A DNA stretch of 64,000 nucleotides from a virus (Duplodnaviria > Caudoviricetes), in the IMG/VR virus record IMGVR_UViG_3300033463_000015, one strand, 5' to 3'. This document shows positions 4,420 through 54,212 of this stretch, in pieces. Position 1 is the first letter of the stretch, and each line of letters starts with the position of its first letter. Below the pieces are notes generated by a model. That model was given only the letters and a program-made list of their open reading frames with translations, searched no databases and was not told the DNA's origin. Position numbers and translations under genes: made by a program.

Positions 4420-7400
4420 ATGATAAGGCTTATACAACGACGCTTAATTATCCCGCGTGGAGACACGGGAACATTTACTGTGCCTTTGTTAGCCACGGCC
4501 TAGACTGGTGATGTATAGGTATTCACTATTTTTGATGAGAAGACTTAGAAAAAGGTTTTTGAGAAAATAGTAGAGGTTAGCGGCGAAACAATGGAAATTG
4601 TTTTTAGCCACGCCGATACTGTAAATTTACCGGTTGGTGATTATGTTTGGGATATTAAGTTTTACAAAGACCCTGATATTGTCGATGGAGTGGTGACAAA
4701 TGGCACCGAAATTGACTCTTATTATGCGGCTTTTAAGTTGCCTGTTTGTGAGATTAGATAGACAGGCGATACTTTATTGACTGCCGACGATGCTCCTACT
4801 TCTACTATGGCACCGGAGCAGTTGAATATTGTGTTGGCGGCAATGAGCGAGACTAATGCGGCTAAGGCAGATGCGGCAAATAGTGCATCCGCGGCTGAAG
4901 CATCGGCACAAAGTGCGGGTGCGGCGGCAACTGCGGCTAATACTGATGCGGGTCGAGCAGAAGATGCGGCAACAAGTGCCAGCACAAGCGCTTCCGCCGC
5001 CAGCGACTCTGCGACTGCTGCTGATAGCGCTAAGGCTGACACAATTAGTGCGATGAATAGTGCTGTTGCAGCTAATACAGCAGCATAGACGGCATTGAGT
5101 AGTGCTTAGGCGGCGGCAACTACGGCAACTAACAAGGCTGCTGAGGCGACCGCAAGTGCGGCTGCAGCCAGCGATAGCGCTACTGCGGCTTCAACGAGTG
5201 CTTCTGCCGCCAGTTCATCAGCGAATAGTGCGGCATCAAGTGCTAATAGTGCTGCGGCGTCAGTTATTTAGATGGATGCATTAGTAAGAACTATTCCTAC
5301 TAATGTAAGTGAATTTACAAATGATGCGGGTTATATTACATCCGCGGCTTTACCTACTAAGGTAAGTGATTTGACTGATGATAGCGGACATTATACGAAG
5401 CCGGCTGGTGGTATTCCTGCGGCTGATTTGGCTGATGGAGTAGTGCCGGTGTAGGATGTTTAGATTGATGGAACTAGTATTTTAAATAATAGAGTTGTCA
5501 ATATTCCTACTGCAAATGATAATTCATCTGGAGTAGTAAAAATTGATTCATCTTATGGTATACAAATTTCACAAAATGGCTATTTACAAACTGCTATACC
5601 AAGTGATTCTCAAATAAAAAATGCTAATAAAATTGCTGGTACTTATAAACCTATTGTTCCTAGTATATAGCATATATCTACATTTTATGGCTTAGCAAAG
5701 GCTGCTGGGGCTGATATGAAAAATAGTGATAACGCAGTAGGCACCTACACATCCGAAGCCAAAACCGCAATCCAATCAATGCTTGATGTACCGTCAAATG
5801 CAACCGTAACTAGTGCTATTAGCACAGCAATTGGCAATGTAAATTAGTTCAATATATCGGTTGTTTAGGCTCTACCAGAACAAAATATATAGGAGCATAC
5901 TATTTACTTTGTTCCTAAAACTGGTGAGACTAATGATGTATATGATGAGTATATTTATGTAAATAATGGTTGGGAAATGATTGGGAATACACAAATTGAT
6001 TTGAGCAATTATGCTACAAAAGCAGACACCGTACTTGATACAACCCTTAGCCGCGGACGCAAGGCAAATACTACAGTCGGTACCGCCAGCATCGCATTTG
6101 GCGTTGATGCAGAAGCAAGCGGCTATTATTCTACAGCCATTGGTCTAAATACAAGTGCCGTAAGCCAAGGTGCGTTTGCTGAAGGTAAAAATACAACTGC
6201 ACACTATATTGCTCACGCTGAAGGTGAAAATACTGAAGCAAATGGTTCGTGGGCACACAGTGAAGGCGTAGGCACTGTCGCAAATGGGGCAGCATCACAC
6301 GCGGGCGGCGATAGCACAATTGCGAATGGACATTCTTCATTTGTGACTGGTAGATATAATGCGGCTGACAGTTATGATAATTGGGCTTTCTGGGCTGCTA
6401 ATACATCATATGATGTGGGAGATAAGGTAAAGAGAGAACAATTAGTGAATAATGAGCCTACTATTATAGGCTATATTTGTAAAGAAGCAAATACTGATGA
6501 AACTTTTACTATAAGTCATTGGGACTTTGATAGTAATCATATGAACTATTCTGTTATTGTAGGTAATGGCTATGAAGCAGAAGACTCTGAGACACACGAA
6601 GTTGTAAGACACGGTTCTAATGCATATGCTCTTGACTGGGATGGTAACGGCCACTTCGCAGGTGATGTGTATGTTGGCGCTAATGCTGATTCGACAGGCG
6701 GAGAGAAACTTGTAAAAGAAAGCGATGTGCCTGTTGAGAGCGGAAGTGGCGTTGGGAGTGTACAGACAAAAGCATTTGTGTATAGTGGAGTTACTTTTAC
6801 TCAAACGGCAGAAGGTGTTGGATCATTTGCAGAAGGAATAATGACTACCGCTTCTGGAAATTATTCTCACGCAGAAGGAAATGTTACGACCGCTTCTGGT
6901 ACTAATTCTCATGCAGAGGGGCAGCAAACGATAGCTTCTGGGAACAGAGCTCATGCCGAAGGAAATCGTGTAACCGCATCCGGTGCTAATTCTCATGCAG
7001 AGGGTTATTATACTACCTCATCCGGTGCTAATTCTCATGCAGAGGGTTATTATACTACTGCGTCTGCTTCAAGATCTCATGCTGAAGGATGGATGACCGG
7101 AGCTAATGGTATGGCATCTCATTCTGAAGGCGGTGTTACTGACGCGAACGGCAATTGTTCTCATGCCGAGGGAAGCAATACTATTGCTAACGGAGAAAGT
7201 CAGCATGTAGAAGGTGTATATAATGTTCCCGATTCTTTTAGTAATTGGCCAGAATGGGTTGCTAATACTGTCTATTCTGTAGATGATAAAGTAAAAATAA
7301 CAACTACAGTAAATAATGAAACAACTATTGAAGGTTATATTTGTCAAAATGCTAACTCAGATGCAGAGTTTACTACGGCTAATTGGACTAAAAATACAAC

Positions 7401-9295: not shown

Positions 9296-12147
9296 AATAT
9301 ACTGGGCCTGTGGCATCATTCCACTGCCCTACTAATGCGGAGATTAGAAGCTTGAAGGTGCATTTTAGCCCGAAGCAGGATGGAACAGGAGACCCGAGTC
9401 CGGAGAATGTGCGGCCGATTGTTGGATGGGATGGAGTAAAAGCGTATGACTGGACTTCTGCAAACGCAAGCACCTCTTCTGTTCCAAGTGAGTATAAGAA
9501 GGTCGAGTATCTGGAATGTACCGGGACGCAGTACATCGCGACGAACTACATTGTTCAGTCTGGCTGGGCTGATATAACAATGCGGTTTATGCATAGAGCT
9601 ACCCAATCTAACGATTCAATGTATTTTGGTAGCTCTGCAGGTTCCACTAAATGGACATTCCAATGCGAATGTTATGCTGGAACGGGCTGGTATGTGGCGT
9701 GCGGAAAATATAATTATCGAAATCAGTTGTATGGGTTTTGTACAAGTTCTGATGTTGTGTATGATTTGCGTGTTAATAACGTGTGCCTTACAATAGGCGG
9801 CAATACGACAACAGATAAAACTATACGAGATGGCGAAAACACTTTTCCGATGTACATTTTCGCATGGAATGGTAGTGGTAATGCTCAATACTTGAATACA
9901 GGTGCAAGAATTTATTTTCTGACTTTCCGTGAAAACGGCATTATTGCCGCCGATTTTGTCCCTTGTCTTCGCAAATCTGATAACAAACCCGGAATGTACG
10001 ACACGGTATCTCAAACCTTCTACACCAATGCCGGAACAGGCGAGTTCCTGTATGGCCCTGAAGTAAGCGGATATACTGAGGACTACAAGTTCGGGGTGTT
10101 GGGGAAGAATAAACTTGATGTTTCTGCTTATATAGATAATGAATATGTTAAGTCTGATGGAACTTTTGATACTAATAATTCCTTTAGGCGTACCGATTAT
10201 CTTCATTTATCGCCTGGAGATTATATTTATTCATCTGTAAAAAATGATAGTGTTGCGGCATATAGTAGAGTATGCGGATATACAAAAGATAAAACTTTTG
10301 TTTCAATGCTTAATGAACAGCTTAAAAATTCTGAAAATTACACAATGACTTTTACTGTGGCAGATAATGTTTATTATATTGTATTACAATCATATAAAAA
10401 TACATCACAAGAACAAATCGAACTCGGCTCCACCGCAACCACCTACGAACCCTACTCCTCCGACAACACCGTCTACGGCGGCTATGTCGATCTGGCGAAA
10501 GGGGAAGTGGTGGCGGAGTGGTATAAAGTTGTTATGGACGGAGTAAATATCAAGTGTAATAGTGACTACAGCAATGACAATTATATTATCGGCGGATGGG
10601 TATATGTTTCACCAACCGGAATGTATGATAGTGAGTTTCATTCAAAGTATTGCTGCGACAGCATGCCAATAGTAGCAAACACTGAAACGAATCCACAATC
10701 TTTACCATTTATGCGTACGACAGGTGCTGGATATTTGTATCTTAGAATTTGGGCGGCTAATACGGCAGATCATCCTGAACTTGACACGGCGCAAAAGCGA
10801 AAAGACTTTGTTAATGCTTACCTCCAAGAACATCCAGCATCCGTAGTATACAAATTAAGAGAACCCATCCACTACCCCCTCGCCCCAACCGCCCTCCAAA
10901 CCTTCCTCGGCCGCAACAACGTCTGGTCCAACGCGGACTATGTTGAAGTTGAGTACGATTTGCACGAGACGCAAGACCTATTGCAGCGAAAAGCCTTCAT
11001 TATGGCTAATCAGCCGCACATTGTAAAACCAGCGGCGGCAACGTTGCAGAGCTTCAGGACGGATGTTATTGCGCCGCTGAAGGAATGTAAGGTGCATTTT
11101 GAACCTGTACAAGAAGGTAGTGGTGACCCAAGTCCGGATAATGTCAGGCCGATTACGGGGTGGACTGGGTGCGAGGTGTATCGGACGGGGAAGAACTTGT
11201 TGAATGCCAGCGTACTGTCACAAGCCGAATCGTATAGCACTTTAGGCTTATACGGATACCGCTATACTGATGCGATCTTCCTGAAACCGAATACGCAGTA
11301 CTATATCAACTGGGACAGAACAGGACAAGACGCAACAGCAGACCCTGTGTGTTATTGGGGAATAAAAATCTATAATAGCACATATAGTGATGTATCAGAC
11401 ACCGGAACGTTTAGGTATTATGTGAATGGTGCAAACGGTCTGAGAAGATATACGACCAGTTTTACAACCGGGCCTTACGGTGCTGTTCGATTTGCGATTA
11501 ACCCGCAGAGCGGCTATGCCAATATGCAAGCGGCGCTGAACGACGTATTCGCAAAGGCGTACTGGCAAATGGAAATCGGAACCGCCGCCACTTCTTACGA
11601 ACCCTACAACGGTACGACCATTCCCTTCGACTGGACTTCCTCTGCCGGGACCGTATACGGCGGGTATGTGGATTTGGTGAAGGGGGAGTTGGTGGCAACT
11701 CATAGAAAAGTACAAATACCACCGAATGACATAAAAGGCGGAGTTGGTGGCTTTGTTGACAATCCAGCATATCAAGGAGCCACGTTTACCCATAGATATT
11801 TTAGCATATCTCAACAAAGTAACACGAATGGGTTACTGATTGGGAATTACATGTCAAAAGGGAATTGTGGCAGAGAGGCTTGGCGTTGTAATTATGACGG
11901 AACAGGTTTATTGCACTATTCTGTTTCTAACGATGCAATTGGTGTTACATCAGAAACTTCTGCTGGTGATAGAAATACGGCGGTGGCTGCGTGGTTATCA
12001 GAGTATAATCCATATTTAATATACACTCTACAAACCCCACAACTGGTTGCAACCCTCACCCCAACCCAGCTCAAAACCCTCCGTGGCACTAACAACGTCT
12101 GGTCCAACGCAAACGGCAACATTGAATTGGCTTATTGGAGCCATTAA
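9283..12147 (+). CDS. Large receptor-binding/tail protein with internally duplicated scaffold
   Basis: ATG 9283 overlapping upstream gene end; GDPSP.NVRPI.GW, TVYGGYVDL.KGE and NNVWSNA each occur twice. Confidence 0.7.
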   Translation: MGTVKYTGPVASFHCPTNAEIRSLKVHFSPKQDGTGDPSPENVRPIVGWDGVKAYDWTSANASTSSVPSEYKKVEYLECTGTQYIATNYIVQSGWADITMRFMHRATQSNDSMYFGSSAGSTKWTFQCECYAGTGWYVACGKYNYRNQLYGFCTSSDVVYDLRVNNVCLTIGGNTTTDKTIRDGENTFPMYIFAWNGSGNAQYLNTGARIYFLTFRENGIIAADFVPCLRKSDNKPGMYDTVSQTFYTNAGTGEFLYGPEVSGYTEDYKFGVLGKNKLDVSAYIDNEYVKSDGTFDTNNSFRRTDYLHLSPGDYIYSSVKNDSVAAYSRVCGYTKDKTFVSMLNEQLKNSENYTMTFTVADNVYYIVLQSYKNTSQEQIELGSTATTYEPYSSDNTVYGGYVDLAKGEVVAEWYKVVMDGVNIKCNSDYSNDNYIIGGWVYVSPTGMYDSEFHSKYCCDSMPIVANTETNPQSLPFMRTTGAGYLYLRIWAANTADHPELDTAQKRKDFVNAYLQEHPASVVYKLREPIHYPLAPTALQTFLGRNNVWSNADYVEVEYDLHETQDLLQRKAFIMANQPHIVKPAAATLQSFRTDVIAPLKECKVHFEPVQEGSGDPSPDNVRPITGWTGCEVYRTGKNLLNASVLSQAESYSTLGLYGYRYTDAIFLKPNTQYYINWDRTGQDATADPVCYWGIKIYNSTYSDVSDTGTFRYYVNGANGLRRYTTSFTTGPYGAVRFAINPQSGYANMQAALNDVFAKAYWQMEIGTAATSYEPYNGTTIPFDWTSSAGTVYGGYVDLVKGELVATHRKVQIPPNDIKGGVGGFVDNPAYQGATFTHRYFSISQQSNTNGLLIGNYMSKGNCGREAWRCNYDGTGLLHYSVSNDAIGVTSETSAGDRNTAVAAWLSEYNPYLIYTLQTPQLVATLTPTQLKTLRGTNNVWSNANGNIELAYWSH

Positions 12148-31151: not shown

Positions 31152-33086
31152 ATGGATATAATTGATGTTATTTTAGGAAGAGTCTTATCTCCTTCCGGCC
31201 AAATATCTACTTATGCCGCTCGTGCAGCTCAGGCCGCTCGAGATGCGGAAGCGGCAGTAGATTCAATTGATTCAATCACAGAACAAACCAATACAAATAA
31301 TGAGAATGCTGAGCAAGCATTAGAAGATGCTAATGCGGCTTTAGCTGCTGTAAATGAAGCATTAGGTTCATTTGATACTTAGACTGAATTAATTGATGAT
31401 GAAATTAATAAATTAGTTTTAAGTATGACAACTTCTATGACGAGTGAAGCAATCTCAAAGAATTTGGTAACTACTTATCCAGATGATTCTACTCATACTT
31501 TACAAAATGTATTAATTATGTATCAGCAGTCTGGTAACAATGTTAATGGTACAATGACTCAAAAAGCCATCACTAATTACGTAAATAGCGTCAAAACAGA
31601 ACTTCAAACCGCTATTAATAATATTACTATTTCAGGCGGCGGTGGCAGCACTAATTTAGGCATTGACAACGCCGGAACTATTGTAGTAGTAGGCCCCGAT
31701 GGCAATATCACTGCTGGTAATGCTACTGAAGCTGATGTAATTGAAGCTTTAATCAAAGCAGGAGCTTATTCTATTTCTGGTGTAGTTGGTATGGAGCTTG
31801 ATTATGAAAATAAAATTTATACTCGTACTCAAGATGGTAGGGTATTACAAGCAGGCTCTGATTATGACCAATATCCAATGTTTGGCGGTCGCAAGCGTTG
31901 TAATGTAGCTGATGATGGCACAATTACTGCTTGGTATGGTGATAATAATTATACTGAAGATGGTAGTAATGGTTAGGTTATGGTATATTAGCCCAAATTC
32001 TATTATCAAAGAGTGTTAATTAATAGTCAAAACAGCCCAATTAATGGTAAAATTGTTAAAAAAGAATCATTAGTTTTAAGTGATACACAAATTGCTGGTT
32101 TTAAATTACATCCATTATTTATTAATGAAGATGGCGAAGAAGTTGAGTATGTATTATTATCTGCTTATGACGGCTCAGTTTATGATACTTCAGCTTCTAC
32201 ATATTTTCAACACGATGAAAGTGGAGTAGATTTTAACGCCGATAAATTAAGTTCTATTGCTGGTGTAAAACCTGTTAGTGGCGAAAATAAAGCGCTTACT
32301 CCAGCAGCATCAGAGCACCTTGCAAATAATCGCGGTGAAGGATGGCATAGTTTTAATTCAAAAGTTGATAGTGCTAATTAGATGTTATTTATGACAGAGT
32401 ATGGTACTCCAAATGGCCAAATAGCATTAGATCTTGGCGTTTGTATGATTAGTACTGTAGCCAATAAAAACTGTAGTAGTCTTACAGGTTCAACTTCTAA
32501 TCTAGGCAATGCTTCTGGCACTGCTACTTCTACGATTAATGAAATTAATGGTACTTATAATACTTATAATGATTCTGGTAAAACAGCAGTATCTTATCGT
32601 GGAGTAGAAAATCCTTGGGGCAATCTATGGCATATAGTAAGCGATGTTTTATTATATGGTAATTAGAATTTATAGGGTGGTATGCCTTATATTTGTAATG
32701 ACTATAATTATAGTAATACTTTATAGGATAATTATGGAGCTCTTGGATTTGTATTGCCAGTATCGGAATCATTTATTTCTGCTTTTGGATATGGTAATCC
32801 AAATTATGACTGGGTTTATATGCCAATTGAATGTTCTTCCAGTGCTAATAATATTTTACCAATAGGTGACTGCCTATGGAGTGTAGCAAAACTTAATGCT
32901 ACTCATAGTTTATATAATGGCGGGCATTGCGGTTTCCAAGAAAAAGATGGTCTATTCTGCTATGCTGGTGACCTTTCACCTTCAGAATATGGTCGTTCTT
33001 ATGGCGCCAAATTAATGTTTGTGCCAACTAAAAATAATATTTATACGAATAATATTGCTGCTTGGACTACTAAAATGGGAGGTTGA
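31152..33086 (+). CDS. Tail collar/fibre protein with C-type-lectin-like fold (~644 aa)
   Basis: ORFs 31152, 31425, 32013, 32382 and 32754 in frame; GSNGQVMVYQPKFY, GFKLHPLF and YRGVENPWGNLW. Confidence 0.75.
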
Positions 33087-39530: not shown

Positions 39531-40117
39531 AGGAGATATTAGGTTAGTAAATTTTGAACCAAGTGAAGATGTGCTAACCACACAGCTTGGGCTATCCGTA
39601 TAGTAGCTGTCACTGCCCGAAGGATACTTTTGGTTAAACAGCCGCCAAAACAGCAATGTTAGGCGATAAAGGAGAAACTCCAAATACTAAGGATAGGCGC
39701 TTGGGTGTTCGCAATCAAAAGCACTTTTCCTCTCGGCTACATAATAGAAAGCTTGTTGAACAGACGAGCCGAATCCAGATAAGGCATTGGGGTGGTAGCC
39801 AATGCAAACTCTGGAAATACCATAAGTAGCTATCGGCGTTGATGAAAGCCGGAAACGGCATATAAGAGAGGTTTGTGGTGGGAGTAGGCCAAAGCGACGT
39901 ACAAGTAATATTGAATAAAAGAATTATTGAATATTGCTGAATGGTTTGGCTGAAACTTGAAGGTAGTCAATCCTTCCTACACACGGCGAAAGCGGATCGA
40001 AGAAGCTATGGGATCGCTACCTATGGCTCAGCCTTCGGTTCTGTAGTGGCTGAATATGATTGAAGAATTACTCGGGTACGGCGAAGGTCGCAACAGTTTA
40101 CTAACCTAATATCTCCT
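39531..40117 (+). ncRNA. Large structured RNA, probably ROOL class (587 nt)
   Basis: Own promoter; 21-bp perfect terminal inverted repeat; no ORF; size, tRNA-array context and 3' motifs resemble ROOL. Confidence 0.6.
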
Positions 40118-42708: not shown

Positions 42709-43061
42709 GGGGTAGTTTTGGTTTCGACAGGTTATGAATGGTATTGAAATCACGGGTAGGCGGCGCACCTTACGCAGCAAACAATTGAACTGACAACGAT
42801 TATTTCTATAGCGAACTAAAGGCTGCTTAATTGCAGTTTCGCGCCTAAACAACAAACCTGCTAATCGGTAAATGTTTGCGGTTCAGAGATAGATTAGTAG
42901 ATTGGCTTCGGGCCAGCTGGTCTTCTCTATTCACAGTCCAACGAATAGAGTGGTGGAAGGATCATTCCCAGTTTGTCAGAACTTAAAACTGACTATCGTG
43001 TAAGTAATTTTCAATATTGGTTGTAGCTTGGACAGGGGTTCAACTCCCCTCTACTCCACCA
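42709..43061 (+). ncRNA. ssrA: tmRNA; tag (A)DNDYFYSELKAA at 42792-42830
   Basis: GGGGTAG...GGTTTCGAC 5' end; 3' T-arm and CTACTCCACCA; tag ends AA-stop. Confidence 0.9.
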
Positions 43062-44929: not shown

Positions 44930-45056
44930 AATGCGGTGGCGGAATAGGTAGACGTCGTAGTTCCAAATCACAGGCTGAGTCGTAAAGGGACGAATAAAAC
45001 TGGCGAGCGAGAGCTGCCTGATCTCGTATGCGAGGTGCAAATCCTCGCCCGCATTA
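44930..45056 (+). ncRNA. tRNA-like RNA with ~75-nt domain replacing anticodon/variable arms
   Basis: AATGCGG/CCGCATT acceptor; Leu-type D arm GGCGGAATAGGTAGACG; T arm GCGAGG-TGCAAAT-CCTCGC. Confidence 0.65.
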
Positions 45057-45057
45057 T

Positions 45058-45151: not shown

Positions 45152-45649
45152 ATGTTTGATATTGAAGAAAATAAGCGTCTCTGCGACACATATCCCTTCC
45201 TTATTCCCTTCAATCGCTTCAGCGGCAAGCGTATTAACTGTGGCGAAAAAGGTTACTGGCCCGGTAATCCTGATGAGTATCCGCCAGAATGGAACTATGA
45301 ATATACAGAACTTGATGATATGCCAGATGGATGGCGTGATGCTTTTGGTGAACAATTGTGCTTTGAAATTAAACAAGCTTTGCTTGATGAAGGTGGCGAA
45401 AAGCTTCTTGATGAGTATCGCGTTGACCAAATTAAAGAAAAATATGGCACTTTAAGATGGTATGATAATTTTAGCACCAAACGCATTCAAGATATTCTTG
45501 AAAAATATGAAAATTTAAGTGCTCGCACTTGTATTAAATGCGGCAAGCCTGCTACTAAATTAAGCCGCGGGTGGATTGCCCCTTGGTGTGATGAATGCGG
45601 CAATGATGAAGATGAAGCGTATATGAGTTTAGACAATGCTTTTATTTGA
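45152..45649 (+). CDS. Conserved phage protein (QIKEKYGTLRWY family)
   Basis: QIKEKYGTLRWY and CIKCG...WCDEC motifs. Confidence 0.75.
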   Translation: MFDIEENKRLCDTYPFLIPFNRFSGKRINCGEKGYWPGNPDEYPPEWNYEYTELDDMPDGWRDAFGEQLCFEIKQALLDEGGEKLLDEYRVDQIKEKYGTLRWYDNFSTKRIQDILEKYENLSARTCIKCGKPATKLSRGWIAPWCDECGNDEDEAYMSLDNAFI

Positions 45650-45789
45650 CTTTTGATAAAAAATTTGATATAATATATATAGAAAGTAGGAAATCAGCGA
45701 GTTCTCCCACGAATAAAGTTAGCGCTGTAAAGGGTGGGAACGGTAGGCAGATAGAAGTTGTGAGGTCGCTGATAGGCAACAGATGAAAT

Positions 45790-46052
45790 AGCCCCGTAGT
45801 TGAATGGTACAACACCGGTCTCTAGCCTTAATTGGAGCCTTATATGGAGACGTATAAGTGAAAATGCCGCTAATTCGGTGAAAGCTTAACTGCTAACCCC
45901 GAGCAAGGAGAAATCCGTGTGTAGAGACTTTACACGGCACATCTAGAACAGATGAAGATAAAGTCCGGACCACGATGTGAAAACAATGTGGTGAAGAAAA
46001 CCGTAATATCCCTCTGACGGAGGTTGTCTGGGTTCGAATCCCAGCGGGGCCG
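45790..46052 (+). tRNA. Amber suppressor tRNA (CTA) interrupted by a group I intron
   Basis: Exons 45790-45823 + 45997-46052 give CGGT-CT-CTA-AA-ACCG; long variable arm; G73. Confidence 0.75.
45824..45996 (+). ncRNA. Group I intron (173 nt)
   Basis: Core elements AATTCGGTGAAAG / AACCCCGAGC / GTAGAGACT / AAGATAAAGTCC; IGS GGAG pairs exon CTCT with U.G at splice site; terminal G. Confidence 0.85.
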
Positions 46053-46054
46053 TC

Positions 46055-46203
46055 GCGACACTGTAGGCTTAGAAGTAGCCATCAGCTAAAGAGTTTATAT
46101 GCCTCCATTCGTGCGAAATGTATTATGGGCTACAAAAATTGTCCTATAAGTATGATGTGCGGTGGACAAAAGGTAAAATAATTTGGTGTAATAACACAGT
46201 CGC
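46055..46203 (+). ncRNA. 23S rRNA GTPase-associated-centre (L11-binding H43/H44) mimic RNA
   Basis: CTGTAGGCTTAGAAGTAGCCATCAGCTAAAGAG...GTGTAATAAC, closed by GCGAC/GTCGC. Confidence 0.75.
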
Positions 46204-46233
46204 ATTTTAGAAGCGTGAAAACGCTTCTTGTAT

Positions 46234-46367
46234 CTGGGTGTAGCGCAGTTTGGTAGCGCATCAGATTTGAAAATCTAGCATAACGGTAATGCTTTATATC
46301 AGAGTTCGATTCTCTGGATTTTCACGGGATCTGAGGGTCGTGAGTTCAAATCTCACCACCCAGACCA
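46234..46367 (+). tRNA. tRNA-Pro (TGG or CGG) with 57-nt tRNA-like insert in the anticodon loop
   Basis: CTGGGTG/CACCCAG-ACCA; TCAGA-TT...GGGA-TCTGA interrupted at 46268-46325. Confidence 0.85.
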
Positions 46368-46535
46368 ACAGGATGGCATGAAACCTGTCACAATCTGCAT
46401 AGCTGAGTGTAGATAAAAACATGCCTATCAGCATTTAGCGCCGTTGGGAACCTTATGGTGGAAGAGCCCTACAAGAAAGAGGCCGAGTAGTATCCGCAAC
46501 TCTTCCGGCGCATTTTTTTATTAAAAGGAGAAAAT

Positions 46536-46946
46536 ATGATAGCAAATATTTGTGAGCATTGCCAACACTTTTTAGAAGATCAAGCAGAATATCATTATTG
46601 CCATGTATGTAATATGGATCATAGTTGTTTTTTACTAAAAAACAAAGAAAAAGTTTTTTATCGTGTAATTACATTTTGTAATTTACCAAAAGAAGATGAC
46701 AATTTTCCACCAGACTATGACACACCAGCTTATTATGAAAATAAAGATGATGCTATTCAATGTGTAAAAGAAAATTGCTGTGATATTTATGAGGGTAGCT
46801 ATCCAGCCGCAATGGTAATTGAAACTGGATTTGGATGCTATCCATATTGCCCCAATCGTTGGTACTTTGAATGGGAAGGCGATTGGAGAACTGGTAAGTA
46901 TGTGCAAAAAGAAGAACCTAAATCATTGGAGCATTGGGGACTATGA
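46536..46946 (+). CDS. Cys-rich hypothetical protein
   Basis: AAGGAG RBS; 136 aa. Confidence 0.65.
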   Translation: MIANICEHCQHFLEDQAEYHYCHVCNMDHSCFLLKNKEKVFYRVITFCNLPKEDDNFPPDYDTPAYYENKDDAIQCVKENCCDIYEGSYPAAMVIETGFGCYPYCPNRWYFEWEGDWRTGKYVQKEEPKSLEHWGL

Positions 46947-48419: not shown

Positions 48420-48705
48420 GCGGGTATGGCGGAATAGGCAGACGCCACAGACTTTAATAAAAAGAGCACTAGAATAGGAAACTTTCTGAGTGAATGCTGG
48501 CTAATTCGGTGAAAGTCCTTATGGGATAACGCCGAGCTAAATGGTTTAAAACCTAAATGTGTAGAGACTATATACCAGCCACCTAAATCATAAGATATGG
48601 TGAAGACATAGTCCAGACTACAACGTGTAAGCGGCCATAGTAATATGGAGTAGTAGGAAAATCTGTTGCCCTCTGGGCGTGCCGGTTCAAGTCCGGCTAC
48701 CCGTA
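48420..48705 (+). tRNA. tRNA-Leu(TAA) with group I intron
   Basis: Exons 48420-48454 + 48658-48705 give ACAGA-CT-TAA-AA-TCTGT; Leu-type D arm. Confidence 0.85.
48455..48657 (+). ncRNA. Group I intron (203 nt), after U34
   Basis: AATTCGGTGAAA / AACGCCGAGC / GTAGAGACTA / AAGACATAGTCC core; IGS GAG pairs CTT; terminal G. Confidence 0.85.
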
Positions 48706-50475: not shown

Positions 50476-50961
50476 ATGCCTACATTGTATATTATGTGCG
50501 GTATTCCGGGGTCTGGTAAAACTTATTTTGCACGGAATTTTCTTCGTGCAGATGTAACAGTATCTCGTGATAATATTCGTTTCATGATGCTGGATGATAA
50601 TGAACAGTATTTTGACCATGAGGCTGAAGTATTTAACGAATTTGTAAAAACTCTTGTGCATCATCTTCATCATTTTGAAACAGTGGTAGCGGATGCGACT
50701 CATCTCAACATCTGGTCACGTAAAAAGCTTACAAATGCTATTGACAAATATATTACGGATTATCGCATCGTATATGTGGTATGCGCTCCTTCACTACAGG
50801 TATGCCTCTATCGTAACAGCAAGCGCACTGGCCGTTCTCGAGTACCAGACGAAATCGTAAAAGAAATGGCCGACAAATTTCATCCGCCCGTAACTGACGC
50901 TTATAAATTGGAAGATGAGCGAGCAGTAGGAGTTTGGTGGATTAATGGCGAACCAAAATGA
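50476..50961 (+). CDS. P-loop kinase (polynucleotide kinase/AAA_33-like)
   Basis: GIPGSGKT, SRDNIR, DATHL and RNSKR lid motif. Confidence 0.8.
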   Translation: MPTLYIMCGIPGSGKTYFARNFLRADVTVSRDNIRFMMLDDNEQYFDHEAEVFNEFVKTLVHHLHHFETVVADATHLNIWSRKKLTNAIDKYITDYRIVYVVCAPSLQVCLYRNSKRTGRSRVPDEIVKEMADKFHPPVTDAYKLEDERAVGVWWINGEPK

Positions 50962-51572
50962 ATAACATTTGGTTTACAAGCGATACACATTTCTTTCACG
51001 AGCAATCATTCATTTACGAACCTCGCGGTTTTACTACCACTATGGAAATGAATGAAGCGATAGTAGAACGATGGAACGAGGTAGTCCAAGAAGAAGATAC
51101 TGTCTATCATCTCGGCGATGTATTAATGGGACATTATGATGTTAATATCCTAAAAAGACTAAACGGTAATATATTTTTAATTCGCGGCAATCACGATACA
51201 TTGCAGAAAATTAGCGACATCTACGAAACTGGCAAGGTAACTAATATTATACACACTAGCGAACTTTTAAAGTTCGGCAAACTAAATTTCTTTTGTTGCC
51301 ATTATCCAGTTCTTACTGCTAATTTTGATGATAAGCATTTTTCGCAGCATATTATTTCCCTACATGGTCATTCACATCAAACTTCTAACTGGCTATTTCC
51401 TGAAAACCCATTTATTTATCATGTTGGACTTGATTCGCACGATTGTAAGCCTGTTCATCTAGACGAAATTACTACGGATATACGAAATAGATGGAATCAA
51501 TTAGGCTAGCTTCCAATCATGTTAAATAAAGATTATCATAAAAATTTCACCTCCGAAGAAAGTCAAGATTAA
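50958..51572 (+). CDS. Calcineurin-like metallophosphoesterase
   Basis: SDTHFFH, HLGD, GNHD, HYP and HGHSH; TAG 51507 read through to TAA 51570. Confidence 0.85.
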
Positions 51573-52991: not shown

Positions 52992-54212
52992 ATGTTAAAT
53001 TCAAAACAGGAACGCGAATTAGCTTATGTAGGAATTATTGATGGTATTGAACCCATCCTCGGATATGACCGTGTTGAACACGCTATTGTTGGCGGCTGGC
53101 GTGTTATTGTTCAGAAGGGTCAATTTAATGTAGGTGATCCGGCTATCTACTTTGAAATTGATTCCCGCGTGCCTTCTGATAAAGAATGCTTTGCTTTCCT
53201 TGAGAAGCGGCATTATAAGGTAAAAACGCTGAAGATGTGTAAGACTCTTTCACAAGGTTTGCTTATGCACGCCGAAGATTTTGGTTGGCACATAGGACTA
53301 AATTGTGGAGTGATGATGATTTATGATGGAGAAGAATGGCATAATCCTCTTGATGAATCCCGCTTCCTGACTAAACAACTTGGCGTAACTTACGCCGATG
53401 AAGAAGACAATCAGCGTAAGGCTCCTACTGTAGATAAGTATAAGAAAATGGCCGCTCGTCATCCCGAAATTTTCAAGAAATCTTGGGCTAAGTGGATGAT
53501 GAAACATAATTTTGGCCGCAAAGTGATGTTTTTCTTCTTTGGTAAAAAGAAAGATAAGAAGAATGGTTGGCCTTCTTGGGTTCAAAAGACCGATGAAGAG
53601 CGAGTGCAAAATATGCCTTGGATTCTAAATGATGATGGTGATTGGATTGCCACTGAGAAGATTGATGGAACTAGCACTACTTTCTCTATGAAGCGTGGTA
53701 AATTTAGACATAAATCTTTCTATGTCTGTTCCCGCAATGTATGCTTTGGAGAAGAAAGTAAAGAATGCTATTATGATACCAATGTATACTGGGAAATGGC
53801 TAAGCAATATGATATGTTCAAGGTACTATCTAATTTGTTGGCCGCTTATCCTAATGAAGAATGGATTACCATTCAAGGTGAAACTTTTGGTGATGGTATC
53901 CAGCGGCGAGATTACTCTCTCTGCGGTGAACACGATTTTCTAGCATTTAATCTAATTTTCTCATCTCGCGGTCGTGTAGGAACTCTTGAAATGATTGATA
54001 TTCTCGATCCATATGGAATTGAATGCGTGCCTGTGCTTAATTGTAAGATGAAAATTAATCAATTTGAAAATGTAGATGCTATTCTTACTTATGCAGAAGG
54101 TAAATCTTGTCTGGATAATTTACCTCGCGAAGGTATCGTATTCCGTTCTACTGATGGCTCTAAATCTTTTAAAGCTGTAAGTAATAGTTTTCTTCTAAAG
54201 TATCACTCTTAA
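52992..54212 (+). CDS. RNA ligase (DRB0094/Rnl2-Rnl5-like) with N-terminal OB-like domain
   Basis: YFEIDS, KTDEERVQN, TEKIDGTS, IQGE, REGIVF and SFKAVSNSFL. Confidence 0.85.
   Translation: MLNSKQERELAYVGIIDGIEPILGYDRVEHAIVGGWRVIVQKGQFNVGDPAIYFEIDSRVPSDKECFAFLEKRHYKVKTLKMCKTLSQGLLMHAEDFGWHIGLNCGVMMIYDGEEWHNPLDESRFLTKQLGVTYADEEDNQRKAPTVDKYKKMAARHPEIFKKSWAKWMMKHNFGRKVMFFFFGKKKDKKNGWPSWVQKTDEERVQNMPWILNDDGDWIATEKIDGTSTTFSMKRGKFRHKSFYVCSRNVCFGEESKECYYDTNVYWEMAKQYDMFKVLSNLLAAYPNEEWITIQGETFGDGIQRRDYSLCGEHDFLAFNLIFSSRGRVGTLEMIDILDPYGIECVPVLNCKMKINQFENVDAILTYAEGKSCLDNLPREGIVFRSTDGSKSFKAVSNSFLLKYHS

Follow-up and report, generated by a model that had tools for sequence, protein, structure and literature searches.

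The DNA analysed here (64,000 nucleotides, hereafter the window) is a portion of a large phage genome represented by a 174,344-bp contig from bovine gut or rumen metagenomes. The first part of the window (1-33 kb) holds tail and virion genes rich in TAG codons, and it is followed at 34-50 kb by an array of about 27 tRNA genes that also contains a ROOL RNA and a tmRNA, with genes for nucleic-acid enzymes after the array (Table 1). A ROOL RNA was also found in one relative (L015). Within the array, at 45790-46052 on the + strand, lies a tRNA(CUA) gene whose anticodon is interrupted after U35 and before A36 by a group I intron of 173 nt (45824-45996).

Table 1. Coordinates of the features of the split suppressor gene, its flanks and its neighbours in the window.
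Feature	Position	Strand	Description
ROOL RNA, inside tRNA array	39535-40110		332 bits
tmRNA, inside tRNA array	42709-43061		95 bits
Odd tRNA-like gene	44930-45057		Acceptor AATGCGG/CCGCATT and T arm; ARAGORN calls it Phe(aaa) plus a 36-nt insert, but only when its threshold is lowered
Promoter-like site	45646-45674	+	TTGACT-17-TATAAT, TG ahead of the -10 hexamer; some 115 nt 5' of the tRNA; 11/12 consensus positions
Pre-tRNA 5' leader	45683-45789	+	Long-range stem AUCAGCGA/UCGCUGAU; -25.6 kcal/mol, z -2.0
Exon 1	45790-45823	+	Acceptor 5' strand, D arm, anticodon stem 5' strand, C32 U33 C34 U35
Intron	45824-45996	+	Group I, 173 nt, ORF-less; ωG 45996
Intron helices P1-P4			P1 45820-25/45832-37; P2 45840-46/45851-57 (GAGA loop); P3 45865-69/45935-39; P4 45875-80/45897-902
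Intron helices P5-P7			P5 45884-85/45892-93; P6 45903-09/45914-20 (GAAA loop); P7 45926-29/45962-65
Intron helices P8-P9			P8 45940-44/45950-54; P9 45970-78/45983-91 (GAAA loop)
Exon 2	45997-46052	+	A36 A37 A38, anticodon stem 3' strand, long extra arm, T arm, acceptor 3' strand, discriminator G46052; CCA unencoded
Extra (variable) arm	46005-46025	+	21 nt, 7-pair stem, 7-nt loop CUCUGAC (46012-46018); drawn by ARAGORN
tRNA-Pro(UGG)-like gene	46234-46364		Rfam tRNA 57.2 bits; 57-nt insert within the anticodon, about 46269-46325
tRNA-Leu(UAA) with 203-nt group I intron	48420-48705, intron 48455-48657	+	Classical U34/A35 site; RF00028 65.5 bits, above the gathering score
RNA-repair-like set, directly after tRNA array	50476-51572 and 52992-54212		P-loop kinase (AAA_33/KTI12), metallophosphoesterase, Rnl-type RNA ligase with PHA02142 OB domain

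Neither default ARAGORN nor Rfam at gathering thresholds called anything at 45790-46052. With introns allowed, ARAGORN reported tRNA(cta) i(36,173) at window positions 45789-46054, and Rfam in E-value mode placed Intron_gpI (RF00028) at 45812-45990 with 40.7 bits and an E-value of 1.1e-8, the gathering score of the family being 50. When the exons were joined at 45823 and 45997, ARAGORN drew a full cloverleaf with the anticodon loop CUCUAAA. An earlier note on this DNA had proposed that a 173-nt group I intron at these positions splits the anticodon, that standard tRNA scans would probably miss or miscall the gene and that the CUA anticodon comes into being only upon removal of the intron, and each of these proposals was borne out by the scans. 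Exon 1 is 100% identical to the 5' half of an intron-less tRNA (L065), and exon 2 has 89-92% identity to intron-less Sup-CTA tRNAs (phage phAss-1 and L065). The exons are held together by the anticodon stem (45816-19/46000-03), which comprises four pairs and a conserved C27xU43 mismatch, and an A1xC72 mismatch and G73 recur among the relatives.

The position of the splice junction rests on group I rules and on homologous genes. In P1, the exon sequence CUCU (45820-23) and the adjoining AG pair with UUGGAG (45832-37), which sets U45823 opposite G45834 in a U•G pair, and the 3' end of the intron is G45996; group I rules applied to this arrangement give a single junction, the sole choice that yields a 7-nt loop with U33 and A37. 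The alignment of the window to the empty-site twin (L065) stops at 45823/4 and restarts at 45996/7, from which it follows that the intron is a clean 173-nt insertion. Furthermore, an identical arm (CCGGT-CTCTAAA-ACCGT) is uninterrupted in the long-arm Sup-CTA tRNA of phAss-1 and in seven IMG/VR contigs. Group I rules, the intron-less twin and covariation in eight homologous pre-tRNAs thus agree in confirming, at the level of sequence, the junction CU/A (the slash marking the splice site) that the earlier note had derived from the pairing of CTCT with GGAG and from the terminal G45996. The predicted ligated junction joins ...CCGGUCUCU to AAAACCGU..., and the spliced sequence would read ...CCGGUCUCUAAAACCGU.... 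Rfam's own P1 register, which lies two bases leftward (U45821•G45835), was rejected, since two of its positions are mismatched and it could not yield a 7-nt loop together with a terminal G. Among the contigs of two RNA-library runs, one run labelled metatranscriptomic (probably DNA) and one DNA run, which are mostly contigs of relatives, none joins 45823 to 45997, and the RNA-library contigs represent unspliced or unrelated pieces only; one RNA-library contig covers the unspliced 3' junction (45891-46041), and another begins exactly at 45997, which is uninformative as it is simply a contig end.

The fold of the intron was evaluated in an alignment of eight distinct homologous pre-tRNAs that covered the tRNA helices and P1-P9, including the P3/P7 pseudoknot, with slid pairing partners as controls. 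Standard pairs are formed in 91.3% of the cells of the proposed structure, as opposed to 33-45% in the slid controls, and pairs changed on both sides number 30 against 4-12. These two-sided changes include four in P3, four in P9, three in P2 and one in P8, whereas P7 shows no variation; L2 and L9 are of the GNRA type across the alignment. The U•G pair of P1 is present in seven of the eight homologues, the eighth being an alignment shift, and the intron's 3' end, GTGAAG/AAA with its terminal ωG, is invariant in all eight. These patterns indicate that the ribozyme fold is under selection. With respect to the group I class, exon 1 ends in a U paired to a G of P1, the intron ends in ωG and the P3-P9 core covaries, and the covariance-model score (40.7 bits) is below the Rfam gathering score of 50.

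That low score, together with a UxC mismatch in P4 and a P5 of only two pairs in this copy, could be taken to mean that splicing has been lost and that the gene is a dead tRNA relic, in which case TAG would be read by a suppressor encoded in the remaining 110 kb, the window covering 64 kb of a 174-kb genome, or by the host. Compensatory changes in both the intron helices and the tRNA stems, as well as the invariant catalytic core, are maintained across diverged copies and argue against such decay, as does a complete relative (G003) that has no other suppressor and yet carries TAG in a conserved tail gene. We regard a dead gene as very unlikely.

Homologous introns were found beyond this locus. 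A class I homologue's intron (L009/L016) scores 58.2 bits, above the Rfam gathering score, and aligns helix for helix with the suppressor intron. The same is true of the intron in the tRNA-Leu(UAA) gene 2.4 kb downstream of the suppressor, with which it has the core motif GCTAATTCGGTGAAAG...GTGTAGAGACT in common; ARAGORN miscalled this gene as Phe(gaa), and its exons were read by hand. A homologue is also present in a relative (L109). Exact and near-exact patterns taken from the suppressor gene had no match in IMG/VR, and looser patterns did match. A core pattern (TAATTCGGTGAAAG...GTAGAGACT) retrieved homologous introns in further Sup(CUA) tRNAs of IMG/VR and metagenome contigs, and a second pattern added five IMG/VR intron copies; 20 of the 26 matches to a looser IMG/VR pattern were chance matches in coding DNA. 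Homologous introns thereby came to light in long-arm Sup(CUA) tRNAs of nine metagenome and six IMG/VR contigs and in a class I Sup(CUA) tRNA of one IMG/VR contig (L009), a count that is biased because the search pattern was seeded from this intron.

In metagenome and viral contigs, related introns also interrupt ordinary tRNAs, Thr(UGU) and Asn(GUU) among them. At least 120 bacterial genomes contain the core motif AATTCGGNGAAAG...GTAGAGACT, and for 112 of its 121 matches there ARAGORN predicted a surrounding intron-split tRNA, none of them CUA. Given this occurrence in split bacterial tRNAs, we group the suppressor intron with the bacterial tRNA group I introns, and it appears to be a compact member of that type (IC3-like, IC3 being the literature's label for bacterial tRNA introns).

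Several other tRNA-like genes of the array and of its relatives have unusual architectures. The 57-nt insert of the tRNA-Pro-like gene is too small for a group I intron and itself resembles a tRNA without an anticodon arm, with a 7-pair acceptor stem (GAAAATC/GATTTTC), the dinucleotide TA, GCAT-AACGGTA-ATGC as a D-like hairpin, CAGAG-TTCGATT-CTCTG as a T arm and then A and C. This insert may be excised by tRNA-end processing and the halves religated, or the gene may be dead; tRNA-Pro is uninterrupted in relatives (TTTGGGA loop), and a pattern search found no copy of the insert in IMG/VR. On the reverse strand of L015, at 6779-6912 and 9539-9672, Leu(UAA) and Tyr(GUA) carry 49-nt anticodon-loop inserts that are not group I, and the 3' end of the Leu(UAA) insert is ...CACCA. 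In L013, L024 and L009, the region just downstream of the Sup tRNA holds AT-rich tRNA-like elements that combine a long closing stem with a canonical T arm (ATAGG-TTCGATT-CCTAT, for example) and that ARAGORN left uncalled. A sub-threshold match to cow-rumen-3 RNA was located in the tRNA array of the complete relative (L109, 8082-8181; 60.2 bits, gathering score 86.7).

The need for a suppressor in this phage is evident from its coding sequences. Reading TAG as sense restores long ORFs, and on the + strand between 1 and 33 kb in-frame TAG occurs in 13 of the 17 ORFs of at least 150 aa, in keeping with the earlier note's statement that most structural genes carry it. In the tail protein encoded at 31152-33083, three of the seven TAGs fall at alignment columns occupied by Q in 116/120, 120/120 and 120/120 homologues. 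The complete relative introduced above (G003), which is syntenic, TAG-recoded and 179,225 bp long with a CheckV completeness of 100%, has CAA at those three codons, and one CAA of the window is in turn TAG in G003. By these comparisons, TAG is glutamine in this phage.

An intron-aware ARAGORN scan detected no other CUA tRNA within the 64-kb window of the 174,344-bp contig, which upholds the claim that the split gene is the window's sole TAG-decoding tRNA. All tRNA hits of G003 are confined to one 12-kb array (111.6-123.6 kb) in which the sole CUA tRNA is an intron-split one, and two fragmentary relatives present the same pattern. The earlier note had conceded that an intron-free suppressor elsewhere in the genome would weaken its view of how the intron is used, and the complete relative contains none. 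As the window holds no other CUA tRNA and G003 only the split one, removal of the intron is very probably obligatory for the phage's own decoding of TAG.

The spliced tRNA would have a class I-like D arm and, in addition, a long extra arm whose loop displays U-CUG-A, the shape of a glutamine anticodon loop. Among 39 distinct long-arm Sup(CUA) tRNAs, 37 have an extra-arm loop of the form N-U-(CUG or UUG)-N-N, and in a further one the UUG lacks the U ahead of it. The triplet is CUG in 13 and UUG in five of 18 distinct arm variants and is followed by A in 15 of the 18, and the closing pairs of the arm covary (CG, GC, AU or UA). A register of the extra arm with a 3-nt loop was rejected, as only the 7-nt loop keeps its pairing in relatives such as L013. 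Across this family (39 distinct sequences; loci L002-L083), two hairpins stand adjacent to one another between the D and T arms, and either might be the anticodon arm. Position 1:72 holds a weak or mismatched pair, and G73 serves as discriminator in the window and in most relatives, L024 having A73.

A long arm, G73 and an anticodon stem like that of the phage's Ser tRNAs could suggest serine identity, a reading dropped in view of the alignment of TAG to invariant Gln, the class I-like D arm and the Gln anticodon that the extra arm displays. The weak 1:72 pair, the G73 of most relatives and the CUG or UUG hairpin hint at charging with glutamine. We infer that this charging would make use of the CUG of the second hairpin, which suggests a route by which a tRNA with a CUA anticodon could retain the identity of a glutamine tRNA.

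Upstream of the gene, the site at 45646-45674 is probably a host-type promoter, given how near its sequence is to consensus, and the same promoter sequence stands ahead of the homologous tRNA in four relatives (L045, L030, L021 and L009). The outer stem of the structured leader is preserved in L030 through double changes (ACCAAUCA/UGAUUGGU), one relative's contig is without these 100 leader nucleotides (joint 45687-45788), and the leader has no Rfam family match. The promoter (TTGACT-17-TGnTATAAT) and the start of the leader (TAGAAAGT) are repeated in many rumen contigs, and sequencing depth spikes at 45610-45680 in all four sequencing runs.

This arrangement bears on the main proposal of the earlier note, a code switch gated by splicing, in which removal of the intron, slow or conditional on GTP, Mg2+ or folding, would time the appearance of tRNA(CUA) and with it the translation of late genes rich in TAG. 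In favour of this proposal, splicing is obligatory for the only suppressor detectable in the window and in the complete relative, TAG is concentrated in structural genes, and without a gate the near-consensus host-type promoter would permit early expression. That the intron recurs in Sup(CUA) tRNAs of two different scaffolds, long-arm and class I, may also point to selection and not to mobility alone, and a recoding survey has proposed the supply of suppressor tRNA as a timer (10.1101/2021.08.26.457843). The conserved, structured leader that precedes the gene is the one element that could conceal regulation. If the proposal were true, the ribozyme would be a timer of late-gene translation.

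Other observations weigh against it. An identical anticodon arm is found without the intron in 45 IMG/VR contigs and with it in six, and together with the intron-less twin these roughly 45 homologues in other phage contigs lead us to consider the intron dispensable for such phages. The same intron family occupies ordinary sense tRNAs, including Leu(UAA) 2.4 kb away, and the intron is a minimal 173-nt core limited to P1-P9 with no added domain. Precedent for signal-gated splicing exists in the group I intron of Clostridioides difficile that is controlled by a c-di-GMP-II riboswitch, where an aptamer is fused to the intron. Unlike that system, the suppressor intron has no spare domain and no aptamer or riboswitch family around it, and a search of 45500-46600 against Rfam at E-values up to 1 found no such family. 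In Anabaena and Azoarcus, for example, group I introns of tRNAs complete splicing in minutes, and the guanosine nucleotides present in cells are far above what such introns need. In view of the intron-less homologues, the same introns in sense tRNAs and the lack of a sensor RNA, the proposal that splicing times the code switch is without support in our data, and we hold it unlikely that conditional splicing, whether through the leader, an early phage factor, or nucleotide or Mg2+ status, sets the moment of the code change.

A further candidate is a protective or selfish role, with the intron shielding the suppressor gene or its precursor, for example from host anticodon nucleases or from use by competitors, or spreading by homing or reverse splicing into CUCU/A. 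The kinase, metallophosphoesterase and RNA ligase genes that adjoin the tRNA array suggest that tRNA-cutting defences matter to this phage, and the existence of near-identical tRNAs that differ in having or lacking the intron is consistent with mobility. On the other hand, the mature tRNA would remain exposed to nucleases, and no homing endonuclease gene was detected in the intron or, by Pfam, in the flanking ORFs; we consider such a role improbable. The RNA-repair-like set itself could serve to repair tRNAs cleaved by host defences or to ligate the halves of processed tRNAs.

The reading that we favor, and consider likely, is that of a constitutively splicing passenger intron in an amber-suppressor tRNA. 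The gene would probably be transcribed from its own host-type promoter. In the precursor, the anticodon stem would join the exons and CUCU of the anticodon loop would pair with GGAG of the intron to form P1; free guanosine would then attack after U45823, and exon 1 would in turn attack after G45996. The resulting tRNA, with the loop CUCUAAA and the anticodon CUA, would place glutamine at the many TAGs that lie in frame in the structural genes. The intron is expected to be self-splicing, and splicing to be fast and unregulated. It is most likely a mobile or inherited passenger, the main practical effect of which is to hide the suppressor from annotation.

Such concealment is relevant to surveys of recoded phages, in which a suppressor tRNA was found in only about 40% of TAG-recoded phage genomes and non-canonical tRNAs were suspected to have been missed (10.1101/2021.08.26.457843). 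Intron-split suppressors, with homologues in 16 further viral and metagenome contigs, provide one concrete reason for undetected suppressors, and annotation pipelines for recoded phages should permit introns in the anticodon loop. The locus would also make a ribozyme step obligatory for a viral code change. A 2014 review placed every phage group I intron known by then in a protein gene (PMC3984707), and neither a phage tRNA nor a suppressor tRNA with a group I intron turned up in the literature searched; the 'tRNA-Stop interrupted by 2.5 kb' in Vibrio phage pVa5 was not described as a group I intron. The present results place group I introns in phage tRNA genes.

The closest phage counterpart is phAss-1 (OQ749652; PMC10607447), in which TAG is reassigned to Gln (code 15). 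It has a tRNA of the same long-arm family, in which the anticodon arm is identical and the 3' exon matches at 91.7% over 46-48 nt, and phages of the phAss-1 type likewise have TAG-rich structural genes in which TAG aligns to Gln. The tRNA genes of phAss-1 are uninterrupted and include a class I Sup-CTA beside the long-arm one, whereas here the gene is split and the window has no second suppressor.

Among cellular systems, the nearest parallel is provided by the group I introns of bacterial and plastid tRNAs (subgroup IC3), with the settings Leu.3Ug, fMet.2Ug, Arg.5Ug and Ile2.5Ug, to which a 2020 preprint by Williams adds 17 more (10.1101/2020.01.27.920355). Like these, the suppressor intron is a small, ORF-less ribozyme in the anticodon loop; its P1 contains a U(-1)•G pair, its last nucleotide is G, and the anticodon stem keeps the exons together. 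It differs from them in its phage host, in its location within a stop-codon suppressor and in being very compact at 173 nt. Its insertion site, U35/A36 (4Ug in Williams's notation), when compared with the four classical settings (3Ug, 2Ug and 5Ug), matches none of them. While anticodon-loop group I introns were already known in bacteria and plastids, the phage host, the suppressor tRNA and the insertion site are new with respect to the literature searched.
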